DNA of 64,000 bases from Eledone cirrhosa. Taxonomy: Eukaryota. A program made the position numbers and the translations under genes. Within the stretch, counting starts at the first letter, position 1; each line of letters starts with the position of its first letter. Positions 53,359-64,000 of this stretch are shown here, piece after piece. The DNA lies in NCBI GenBank assembly GCA_964016885.1, contig OZ024741.1, forward strand, positions 299,274,001-299,338,000, in the 5' to 3' direction. Below the pieces are notes generated by a model. It had not been told where the DNA came from and ran no database searches. It saw only the letters and a list, made by a program, of their open reading frames with translations.

Positions 53359-53845
53359 AAAGTAAGTATGTTTTGAAACAGTGAGCAAGATTGAAATTAG
53401 AAAATAGAAGCTTTCACCGTATTTTTTTACTAAAGAAATTTTAGCCTGATAGTGGGGTTTAGAACCCTCAGAAGAATGGAAAAAGATGAATATTGACGTA
53501 CATCGGTGTCGAACCCACATCTTTGGTAATCGAGACCACTATCAGACTAACATTTCTTTAGTAAAAAAATACGATGAAAGCTTCTATTTTCTAATTTCAA
53601 ACTTGCTCACTGTTTAAAAACATACTTACTTGTCATCATACTTGCTAAGAATGAAGCTTCTAATTTGAATGAAGGATATGGGTGATATGTGTGTGTAATG
53701 GTAGCACAGTGGTCTGGATAACCACAGATGTGGGTTCAACTCCCATGTACGTCAATACTCATCTTTTTTCCATTCTTCTGAGGATTCTAAACCCCACTAT
53801 CAGGCTAAATATTTCTTTAGTGAAAAAATACGGTGAAAGCTTCTA
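53359..53845. mobile_element. tRNA-cloverleaf-bearing repeat unit, inverted + tandem array in (TA)n
   Basis: Antisense 53359-~53540, then sense to 53845; cloverleaf ~53684-53754; homologous to 62755-63741. Confidence 0.85.
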
Positions 53846-53987
53846 TATATATATATATATATATATATATCAAAAGAAAACTGCATCTCCTATTCATTTT
53901 ATCTGACGGGAACATGCAAAATATAGATAATAGAATAAATTGAAATGATCTAAAGTAAACTATCTTTTGTTATATATATATATAAAT

Positions 53988-60311: not shown

Positions 60312-60784
60312 ACACACACATATATATATATATAACTTTTCGAAATCATGAAATCTAAGGATATCCTATTAAATAAGCGACAGGAATTAATTATATCTTG
60401 CAATCATAGAATTAGAAGAACCTTCAAATATTATAAACCTAATTAATATAAACCTTACTCTTATATTTTACAAATTATTATATTTGTTTTTTTAAATTTT
60501 TAATTTAGTTAACCTATAATAAGCATTTTACTACGGAGAACTTCATATTTTTATTTCCCTCCTACAGCTCTCTTTTCCTAAAATTATTTTAAACCACACT
60601 ACTTTATTTAATCGCATCCCCTATTTATCACATTTAATACCTATGATTATTAAATATAATTAATATCTTTAATATCATCAATGTGCGTATAGATACAATA
60701 CTTTTTAAAAAACATTTTTATCTACTTCAGTTTTTCCATATATTTATTTTTTATTTTTATTGCTTTAATTTCTTACTTCTTTAT

Positions 60785-61345
60785 TTATCACATTCATATG
60801 AATTATTATAATTTTATCCCTGTAAGTATACCTATAAATTAATTTAAGTTCCTGTTATGTATTTAGATTCCTTGTAGTTTAAATAAGATTGGTATTTCTC
60901 ACTAATACCCTTATCCCACAATTTTATTTTCCTTCGTTTTTAACAACACTCTTTAATAAGTTTTTATTTATCACATCAAGTTTTTATTTATCACATTCGT
61001 ATGAATTAATATAACTTTATCCTTGTAAGTATACTTATCAATTAATTTAATTTCCTGTTATGTATTTAGATTCCTTGTAGTTTAAATAAGATTGGTATTT
61101 CTCACTAATACCCTTATACGGAAATTTTATTTTCCTTCGTTTTTAACAACACTCTTTAATAAAATCAATCTTCTATTTATCACATTCGTATGAATTAATA
61201 TAACTTTATCCCTGTAAGTATACCTATCAATTAAATTAATTTCTTGTTATATATCTAGATTCCTTGTGTTTTAAATAAGATAAGTATTTCTTACTAATAT
61301 CCTTACCCAAAAATTTTATTATACTTCGGTTTTAACAATATTATT
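60785..61345. repeat. ~190-bp tandem repeat, three copies, within the PLE 3' UTR
   Basis: TTTATCACATTC.TATGAATTA...TTTTAACAACACTCTTTAATAA at about 60785, 60988 and 61176. Confidence 0.92.
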
Positions 61346-61349
61346 TAAC

Positions 61350-61542
61350 AGGGCGGTGGATTGGCAGTATCGGTACAGGGTCGGACGCCATTTTTTGACG
61401 TATAGAGTTACGGCCCTTTCCATTCTGAGTTCAAATCCCGCCGAGGTTAACTTTGCCTTTCATCCTTACGGGGTCGATAAAATAAAGTACCAGTAATGCA
61501 CTGGGTATTTGCTGGCCCTGTGCCAAAAGTAGAAACAATTAT
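61350..61542 (+). mobile_element. tRNA-derived SINE (full length)
   Basis: Family match; flanked by TTATTTAA-like sequence. Confidence 0.92.
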
Positions 61543-62529: not shown

Positions 62530-62532
<3 letters not shown>

Positions 62533-62723
62533 CAAAGGAGGTGTGGCAAGGATCCAGATGTACCATAACGTACCTGAGTACTCAATACTCAGGGTAGTAG
62601 AGTGGGTAATAGGTAAATATTTTACCCCGACGGCAGGGCTCAACCAGTTTCGACGGCTATTTCAGTCCAGAAATACCCGTGGAAACGGCTTCAGCTCTGC
62701 CGTCGGGGTCAAACATTTTCCTA
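62530..62723. mobile_element. Hairpin-headed repeat family, fold-back copy
   Basis: Antisense body 62530-62663 turning at CAGTCCAG into sense 62670-62723. Confidence 0.8.
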
Positions 62724-62754
62724 TATACACACAGACACACATATATATATATAT

Positions 62755-63741
62755 AATTAGAAATTAAAAATTATAAGCTTTCACCGTATTTCAGACTAAA
62801 GACATTTCTAGCCTGATAGTGGGGTTAATAACCCTCGGAGAAATGGAAAAAGATGAGTGTTGCCGTACATGGGAGTCGAACCAATATATTTGGTTATCCG
62901 GACAACTGTGCTACCATTACACCAATACACATCCCGTCTCCTTCCATTCGAATTAGAAGCTATGAACTTAGCAAGTGAATGATAAACAAGCAAATTATAA
63001 ATGTAAACATGTAAGTATGTTTTTGAAACGGTGCGCGAGTTTGAAAACTAGAAATTAGAAATTATAAGCTTTCACCGTATTTTAGACTAAAGAAATTTCT
63101 AGCCTGATAGTGGGGTTTATAACCCTCGGAGAAATGGAAAACGATGAGCGTTGCCGTACATGGGAGTCGAACCCACATCTTTGGTTATCCGGACCACTGT
63201 GATTCCATTAACATACCGTTTCAAAAACATACTTACATGTTTACATTTATAATTTGCTTGTTTATCATTCACTTGCTAAGTTCATAGCTTCTAATTCGAA
63301 TGGAAGGAGACGAGATGTGTATTGGTGTAATGGTAGCACAGTGGTCCGGATAACCAAAGATGTGCGTTCGACTCCCATGTATGGCAACACTCATCTTTTT
63401 CCATTTCTCCGAGGGTTATAAAGCCCACTATCAGGCTAGAAATTTCTTTAGTCTAAAATACGGTGAAAGCTTATAATTTCTAATTTCTAATTTTCAAACT
63501 CGCGCACCGTTTCAAAAACATACTTACATGTTTACATTTATAATTTGCTTGTTTATCATTCACTTTCTAAGTTCATAGCTTCAAATTCGAAAGGAAGGAG
63601 ACGGGATGTGTATTGGTGTAATGGTAGCACAGTGGTCCGGATAACCAACGATGTGGGTTCGACTCCCATGTACGGCAACACTCATCTTTTTCCATTTCTC
63701 CGAGGGTTATAAACCCCACTATCAGGCTAGAAATTTCTTTA
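62755..63741. mobile_element. Inverted + tandem array of a ~291-bp tRNA-cloverleaf-bearing unit
   Basis: Antisense units 62755-~63212, sense units ~63214-63741; period 291. Confidence 0.92.
63607..63677 (+). tRNA. tRNA-like cloverleaf (repeat-borne, probably not a translating tRNA); further copies at 63316-63386(+), 62861-62931(-), 63152-63212(-, partial)
   Basis: D arm GTGT-AATGGTA-GCAC, anticodon arm (G)TGGT-CCGGATA-ACCA, T arm GTGGG-TTCGACT-CCCAT, partial acceptor stem, TTTTT ~10 nt downstream. Confidence 0.6.
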
Positions 63742-64000
63742 GGAAGCAAGTGTTAGTGCCTCCTTAAGGAACGAACTGGCACGTATCCGGAACAAATGCA
63801 CCGACGCTAGAGACCGAGACACACACACCACACATTTCCTGGAAGTACTCAAACTGAACGGATACACGACATCCACCACAAACCGTGCCAGAAAGAACGG
63901 AGGACACCACACCCGAGGCACTAACACTTGCTTCCTGAAGCTCCCACACTTCAGTGAAGAAACAACAACAGCCATCCGCAGAGTTATCAGACGAGAGGGA
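63741..64000 (+). mobile_element. PLE reverse-transcriptase thumb fragment, running off the window
   Basis: Open frame 63761-64000 SLRNELARIRNKC...FLEVLKLNGY...FLKLPHFSEETTTAIRRVIRREG (L..NGY and LP motifs); begins with a 22-bp inverted copy of 63915-63936. Confidence 0.72.

Follow-up and report, generated by a model that had tools for sequence, protein, structure and literature searches.

Near the right end of a 64,000-nt stretch of the Eledone cirrhosa genome (contig OZ024741.1; the whole stretch is called the window) lies a 291-bp unit with a transfer RNA (tRNA)-like cloverleaf, which belongs to a repeat family of its own that contains no open reading frame (ORF). We read the unit as the Penelope-mobilised equivalent of a short interspersed element (SINE), in which the tRNA-like module would likely act as an internal promoter for RNA polymerase III (Pol III), with transcription through a leaky run of five thymines (T5). 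Judged from the sequences, we give this reading a probability of about 0.6.

The layout originally predicted for the locus, antisense-tandem and then sense-tandem units starting in (TA)n, was confirmed: two arms of the unit meet head to head (62755-63742, Table 1), with a period of 291 and 96% matches. Positions within the unit follow the register of the 291-bp unit. The left arm has its 3' end at a site termed short (unit 40/41), inside (TA)n, and its 5' end at unit 168. In the right arm, fusion to a Penelope fragment takes the place of the usual 1-98 tail. All four unit pieces carry one common sublineage marker.

Three exact unit motifs gave 2,248, 1,306 and 1,549 matches in the genome and their reversed controls gave none; as the first 100 matches of one motif represent 68 loci, we estimate the family at roughly 1,500 loci. 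The analyses below are based on 217 of these, which were either chosen by similarity rank or drawn from the motif lists in order of their coordinates, with flanks of median 1.4 kb. From 119 full units we resolved two subfamilies, the younger A (291-bp unit, about 1-4% from consensus), to which the window unit belongs, and the older B (260-bp unit, several sublineages). A search with the T arm added an old sister family, C (L388-L405, e.g., G000:C1:52579594-52579794), with 18 matches that are 70-81% identical to the query; its D and T arms are as in B, and its stems, leader and trailer are different. The C consensus was built from 15 old copies; several C loci have the permuted tandem layout and one (L404) has a clear inverted arm. 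Joins between units are seamless. Contigs of four other sequencing runs contained only near-identical A and B pieces, and an A-to-G editing footprint was absent from both subfamilies (A>G 34 vs. T>C 43 in A, p = 0.82; 68 vs. 100 in B, p = 0.12). Long arrays of B units occur at L176:1445-8330 and L270, with about 26 and 16 copies; those of the L176 array have array-specific variants in common, some in higher-order groups. At L028, private variants are common to alternate copies, as if a two-unit block had been repeated.

Two arms are present in 103 of the 163 elements scored (one locus counted twice). Arms terminate at either of two 3' sites, termed short (unit 26-40) and long (about 98 in A); the distance between these sites is about 60 nt in A and about 40 nt in B. 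Where both ends of a two-armed locus could be assigned, one arm ends at the long and the other at the short site in 77 of 80 cases (p = 1.4e-19; 78/81 before removal of the duplicate locus), and 63 new loci gave 25 long+short, 2 short+short and 0 long+long combinations, with 14 that had an atypical end. The 3' ends touch (TA)n in 228 of 266 cases, against a background of 15%; target duplications cannot be scored inside such tracts. Sublineage markers are common to both arms (21/22, 25/25, 21/22 and 34/40), which argues that one RNA source made both. Arms have a median length of 166 nt and exceed 300 nt in 11 of 98 cases, and unit distances within and between loci, compared with rolling circle and multimer templates in mind, are alike. 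The top-ranked loci at first suggested that processing occurs at the unit 291/1 boundary; this was rejected, as the boundary is not a dominant stop in the motif-anchored sample.

In the available parts of the published work, cited here and below, a Penelope protein nicks both strands of AT-rich DNA, two internal reverse transcriptase (RT) starts on the RNA define the tail, and the hammerhead is dispensable in vitro (PMC11167929); the tandem, inverted and tail layout of Penelope-like elements is likewise described (PMC8557442). The two fixed 3' ends, the long+short rule and the TA targets lend good support to the idea, raised in the original prediction, of a non-autonomous RNA mobilised by Penelope, and we regard mobilisation of the Penelope type as very probable. 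An ordinary tRNA-derived SINE that was moved by a long interspersed element (LINE) and later rearranged into tandem and inverted copies would explain the A and B boxes and the many B arms that begin at the head. It does not fit the two fixed internal 3' ends with their pairing rule, the routine head-to-head arms or the permuted tandem units, and we found no poly(A) or element-encoded tail, that is, no LINE-type 3' end; this explanation is already largely refuted and extremely improbable.

The unit had also been proposed to be a pseudo-long terminal repeat (pseudo-LTR) of the adjacent Penelope, joined directly to its RT-thumb frame. The frame from 63743 is indeed open, and runs past the window into a GIY-YIG domain (Pfam PF01541, 23 bits), followed by a 3' untranslated region (UTR) with a minimal hammerhead and by (TA)n (L031:2000-2985). 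The direct join did not hold up: the first 20 bases after the unit are the reverse complement of 63915-63936 of the same Penelope, with 2 shared bases, so that the first residues of the frame are a product of the junction. Other copies of this Penelope family, a separate one with about 1,930 candidates, align from about 63765. A pseudo-LTR of an autonomous Penelope would agree with the position of the window unit against an RT thumb/GIY-YIG frame in the same orientation, and the survey that speaks to it was limited in flank length and in the number of loci read. Direct joins to a Penelope ORF, however, number 1 in 217 unit loci, namely the window locus; in the remaining unit loci near Penelope a TA tract or at least 0.8 kb lies between, and the unit was found within 1.5 kb of 0 of 24 other copies of the adjacent family. 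That family has a 3' repeat of its own, with the minimal hammerhead and two fixed ends, and units join units without a seam. A pseudo-LTR is thus very improbable. The window copy is instead a chimera, with the unit's short site as its left end and the long site of the hammerhead-bearing Penelope as its right end, so that the long+short rule holds here across two RNAs, and was likely joined through the inverted snippet by template switching of one enzyme.

Other Penelope material was seen in the loci read. L232:1520-3630, L233 and L234 represent a second and a third lineage, 53-59% identical to the adjacent family, whose 3' UTR, on inspection by eye, can fold like a hammerhead, though the core is non-standard. 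L233, L232 and L234 also contain short inverted islands in (TA)n that bear a hammerhead; one motif of these islands has 6,258 exact matches, often as minus/plus pairs 0.2-4 kb apart. In L098, L123, L129, L174 and L030, Penelope ends or fragments share one TA tract with the unit, which indicates the same target preference.

The unit itself appears to be free of ribozymes. In agreement with the original prediction, six consensuses, circularised and scanned with a descriptor, yielded no hammerhead core with stem II on the sense strand, and the scan did find the positive control in the Penelope 3' UTR. Subfamily A has no heptamer within one mismatch of the hammerhead core, B has a single near-core without stem II plus GAAA, and C has no core. 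Rfam yielded no ribozyme match, but as it also missed the Penelope hammerhead control this adds little. A decayed hammerhead around the GAAA at unit 14-17 was considered in three topologies and rejected, with no sense-strand core within one mismatch in A. Likeness to twister-type and twister-sister-type ribozymes was rejected on a comparison with their consensus made by eye only, and Rfam gave no match. The family resembles retrozymes in its non-coding tandem unit of a few hundred bases (291 and 260 bp) and lacks their type I hammerhead in each unit.

The predicted cloverleaf of about 71 nt followed by TTTTT is present. Against the Rfam tRNA model (RF00005, cut-off 29 bits), the last cloverleaf of the window scores 31.4 bits and the copy before it 24 bits, below the cut-off; subfamily B cloverleaves score 36-50 bits. 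ARAGORN with default settings called none of the four subfamily A copies in the window and only a related copy at 53683-53755. The T run begins 10 nt past the discriminator, and T5 is exact in 176 of 185 copies scored. With its A and B boxes the tRNA-related head is like that of a tRNA-derived SINE. The acceptor stem of subfamily A has an A.G mismatch and two extra connector bases. The anticodon loop reads CCGGAUA in the window, where the family consensus has U33, and differs by sublineage: two of its positions are changed in 43/118 and 45/118 copies, and the anticodon position holds GGA, CGA or GGC depending on the lineage. As the anticodon loop varies freely, the cloverleaf is not a translating tRNA, and a functional tRNA gene was rejected on this unstable loop and on the mismatched acceptor stem in A.

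Among the host Gln, Thr and Leu tRNA genes sampled, Gln is closest (47-49 of 71 bases). A search for host genes with a degenerate tRNA pattern gave no match. One host Gln gene type has short leader and trailer words in common with B, and pairing is retained in 8 of 9 pairs in which both bases differ (p = 0.003); as sister family C has other flanks, Gln is no more than a candidate parent. Clusters of host tRNA-Gln and tRNA-Leu-type genes were noted at G000:C1:168.21-168.28 Mb and C1:153.75-153.83 Mb. A different tRNA-like cloverleaf, mostly of 60-71 bits and with a varying anticodon, occurs around 1500-1575 of L218 and L220-L228, within a dispersed repeat of >1.1 kb that is about 94-96% identical between loci and has an internal inverted segment.

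Comparison of B and C shows that the cloverleaf is conserved as an RNA structure. The D arm and A box are identical (18/18), the T arm agrees in 14 of 17 positions, and the acceptor and anticodon stems differ. Five stem pairs have changed on both sides and three on one side with pairing kept, and four are broken in one lineage; 18 of 21 pairs hold in C, more than expected if these positions had changed at random (p = 0.003). Around the cloverleaf, leader and trailer can form a duplex across T5, of -21.8 kcal/mol in B and -14.8 kcal/mol in C. Shuffled leaders did as well in 0/1,000 (B) and 4/1,000 (C) trials, and host tRNA-Gln genes reach -0.3 to -4.6.

Information on the RNA start was sought in the 5' ends of the arms, a method that had no positive control, as the attempted hammerhead-family anchor spanned the cut site. 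In subfamily A (loci anchored at the 3' part), 24 of 54 arms end at the 3' edge of the T arm, compared with about 0.5% per base elsewhere. Twelve ends lie at one AT position, and none of 26 other AT/TA positions has more than one, so the stop needs a cause beyond microhomology. It likely results from the folded T hairpin in the template; 1-methyladenosine at position 58 (m1A58) was rejected as its cause, since misincorporation was not seen (2/118, 0/86, 2/36).

Subfamily B (T-arm-anchored loci) shows a second pile-up. At -11..+8 of the cloverleaf start, 25 of 59 arms stop, against 15/211 in other 20-nt windows, and the rest of the B arms run into the upstream unit; a SINE would be expected to start at the head, which these 25 B arms do and the others do not, and in A the effect is not significant. 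In 37 held-out loci, fetched after the pattern had been noticed, the counts were 12/28 and 7/100 (p = 2.4e-5), with all 12 at -9..0. On its upstream side the pile-up breaks off sharply: the adjoining 24 nt hold 0/34 stops. The 38 B ends listed divide into 17 at -10..-1, 8 at position 0 and 13 downstream of it (one spurious); the held-out set has 9 of 12 at -10..-1. Human Pol III uses several purines of the leader as start points and commonly reads through terminators (10.1101/2025.10.17.683076). The spread of B ends over a 10-base purine-rich leader fits Pol III initiation, and these fossil ends suggest that the unit was likely transcribed by Pol III. Post hoc, 5' ends in B loci were also seen at cloverleaf positions 31-36, the anticodon loop (7/68, with 0/61 and 2/70 in neighbouring windows).

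The same ends can be set against a model in which Penelope mobilises the unit and the cloverleaf is mainly a cutting signal, with RNase P making monomers from tandem transcripts as the hammerhead does in retrozymes. The unit has no hammerhead, its stems are kept by compensatory change that a promoter does not need, and the modal end 0 would equal +1 plus one untemplated A; L251 and L287 are perfect palindromes centred there. Yet 17 of the 38 B ends, and the 9 of 12 held-out ones, lie upstream of the RNase P cut, leader and trailer form a helix in both B and C, and the youngest subfamily has a mismatched, shifted acceptor stem. Junction scars at +1 were not seen and indels across it are not in excess (189/195 spans have the exact length), and the expected RNase Z site has no pile-up (4/60 in the interval holding unit 227). 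The shortness of the arms does not resemble long copying round a circle, even though the genome contains arrays with about 16 and about 26 units. We consider RNase P cutting as the main role unlikely. Slightly less doubtful, and still tentative, is a double function, in which the hammerhead was swapped for a tRNA mimic that serves both as Pol III promoter and as RNase P signal cutting tandem transcripts into unit-length templates. If this dual reading were true, the units would be ribozyme-free Penelope parasites, a SINE equivalent processed by the tRNA pathway.

Alternatively, the unit could be mobilised by Penelope after passive read-through by RNA polymerase II from flanking DNA, the tRNA module being a captured passenger whose fold does nothing but stall the RT. 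A T5 placed immediately after the cloverleaf would normally stop Pol III before it had transcribed the sites where the RT starts, subfamily A has no significant pile-up in the start zone, and the strongest stop is at the hairpin, all of which would suit a passenger. It would leave unexplained that the A box and D arm stayed unchanged between B and C while neighbouring segments diverged, and that the B pile-up has a sharp upstream limit on a strand already unpaired when the RT arrives; we consider passive transcription quite improbable. Penelope-type mobilisation is common to this model, to RNase P cutting and to the Pol III reading that we prefer.

As to the roles first proposed for the tRNA mimic, the Pol III promoter is favoured by the B pile-up at -10..0, the RNase P signal has the mode at 0 and the conserved cloverleaf on its side at a lower probability, and the RNase Z signal gained no support, as its expected site has no pile-up. 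Analyses that looked for an ordinary SINE with tails, a hidden hammerhead or an unconserved cloverleaf found none of the three.

Under the preferred Pol III reading, transcription would start 0-10 nt before the cloverleaf of a tandem source copy and would often read past T5 into the next unit or units. As covariation shows, the RNA would fold into a cloverleaf seated on a helix of leader and trailer, in which the U5 tract and the two sites of tRNA processing are hidden. Paired leaders and trailers hinder tRNA processing, and the helix would likely protect the RNA from cutting. A Penelope RT/GIY-YIG dimer, the presumed enzyme, would then nick both strands of a TA repeat, and complementary DNA synthesis would start internally at the short site for one arm and at the long site for the other (spacing about 60 nt in A, about 40 nt in B), with one RNA as the source of both. 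The arms observed end at the T-arm hairpin, in the start zone or further upstream, and are joined head to head.

Several results weigh against this reading. In the window's own subfamily, A, the start-zone pile-up is not significant (5/18 vs. 8/68, p = 0.13; held-out 2/4), and in B 34 of 59 arms pass the start zone, for which T5 would need to be very leaky; the modal B 5' end, position 0 (8/38), is fitted equally well by an RNase P cut. If only A and B are compared, conservation of the cloverleaf does not exceed that of the remaining unit (7/71 vs. 27/184 ungapped columns, p = 0.41), the acceptor stem of A is weakened, the fold of the window copy is not superior to those of shuffled sequences (z = -0.83), and the corresponding region of the C consensus, with its 15 old copies, reaches z = -1.1. 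A promoter should need only the A and B boxes, so conserved stems would require an added role at the RNA level. On the side of mobilisation, 22 of the 103 two-armed loci have one atypical end, the chimera is a single case in which a later deletion is possible, and a comparison with the 3' ends of 12 Penelope loci found no sequence shared with the unit that would point to a partner Penelope.

SINEs are passengers of LINEs, and those derived from tRNAs have internal A and B boxes from the tRNA and an RNA that starts at the head. The present unit differs in that its head is internal to a permuted tandem, T5 stands directly behind it, and its ends bear the footprint of Penelope and not of a LINE. 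Metazoan non-LTR retrozymes, too, are non-autonomous tandem repeats that code for nothing, with units of about 300 bp, and have been proposed to derive from Penelope (PMC7229834; 10.64898/2026.07.22.740005). Their defining features are circular RNA and a hammerhead in every unit, whereas our family has a module of tRNA type, and most of its arms fall short of one unit length. The family inserts like a non-LTR retrozyme and has a SINE-like head, and it departs from each in a defining feature, having neither a hammerhead nor a LINE-type 3' end.

Penelope-like elements and their pseudo-LTRs similarly combine partial tandem and inverted 5'-truncated copies, a tail at one end, (TA)n targets and two RT starts (PMC11167929, PMC8557442, PMC4209133); the unit family differs by having no ORF or hammerhead and a tail of about 60 nt (A) or about 40 nt (B). 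Chlamys MRC1 (PMC8557442) and short Heliconius elements (PMC6685494) are also ORF-less and Penelope-dependent. The Chlamys elements insert in multiple copies arranged head-to-tail, and most are without hammerheads; the non-autonomous ones resemble their autonomous partners at the 3' end, which was not found for the unit, and the available text mentions no tRNA module (PMC8557442, PMC6685494). The Schistosoma repeats Sm-alpha and Sj-alpha are likewise short, with a tRNA-derived part and a satellite-like organisation (PMC2770079, PMC6155905); the tRNA part of S. mansoni Sm-alpha is tRNA-Gln-TTG (PMC2770079), and Gln is also the best host match of our unit among the tRNA types sampled. Of the known systems, Sm-alpha and the non-LTR retrozymes come closest to the family, and both retain the hammerhead. 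Unlike our family, Sm-alpha has a type I hammerhead, and the portions of the two papers at hand describe no link to Penelope enzymes and no two-armed insertions.

In the literature searched, a tRNA-headed, hammerhead-less Penelope passenger was not described, though repeat databases may list the family under a SINE or unknown label. No tRNA-headed case appears in the accessible parts of PMC7229834, PMC4209133 and 10.64898/2026.07.22.740005, the last of which contains neither 'tRNA' nor 'promoter' in that text, and PMC13282606 and PMC8967140 give SINE and Penelope classes without such a hybrid in the sections available. Known animal Penelope passengers are defined by hammerheads, whereas the present family joins a SINE-type head to a Penelope footprint and lacks the hammerhead. 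This is relevant to the question of whether Penelope transposition requires a hammerhead, which is dispensable in vitro (PMC11167929) and of unclear function (PMC8557442), and to how such non-coding units come to be transcribed. With its small RNA of 260-291 nt, on which two RT starts and a predicted RNA start zone have been located, and with a natural chimera that includes a candidate partner, the family offers a ready substrate for the published in vitro Penelope assay (PMC11167929).

Table 1. Features of the two-armed insertion, its Penelope neighbour and a second insertion of the family (window positions; outer limits of the left-arm cloverleaf follow the unit register).
Feature	Position	Strand	Remarks
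Left inverted arm, subfamily A	62755-63210	-	unit 41 to 1, 291 to 1, 291 to 168
Complete cloverleaf, left arm	62861-62933	-	A box 62914-62924, B box 62872-62882
Head-to-head junction filler	63211-63214	.	4 bases
Right arm	63215-63742	+	unit 55-291, then 1-291
Cloverleaf with one change beside the B box	63314-63386	+	RF00005 24 bits at 63316-63384
Purine-rich leader	63588-63604	+	complementary to trailer; holds the subfamily B 5'-end pile-up zone (predicted Pol III start zone)
tRNA-like cloverleaf	63605-63677	+	A box 63614-63624, B box 63656-63666; RF00005 31.4 bits at 63610-63674
Trailer with T5	63678-63697	+	T5 at 63687-63691; pairs with leader
Inverted 20-base Penelope snippet at junction	63743-63762	-	copy of 63915-63936
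5'-truncated Penelope fragment, RT thumb	63765-64000	+	continues past the window edge
Second, independent two-armed insertion, same family, subfamily B (~260-bp unit), in (TA)n	53360-53846	.	ARAGORN call at 53683-53755

Two further features were noted to the left of the insertion. A short TA-flanked segment directly adjoins it (62532-62725) and contains an inverted pair near 62620-62645 and 62697-62720. At 60780-61351, an AT-rich repeat of 180-203 nt is present in three copies that are 85-94% alike.
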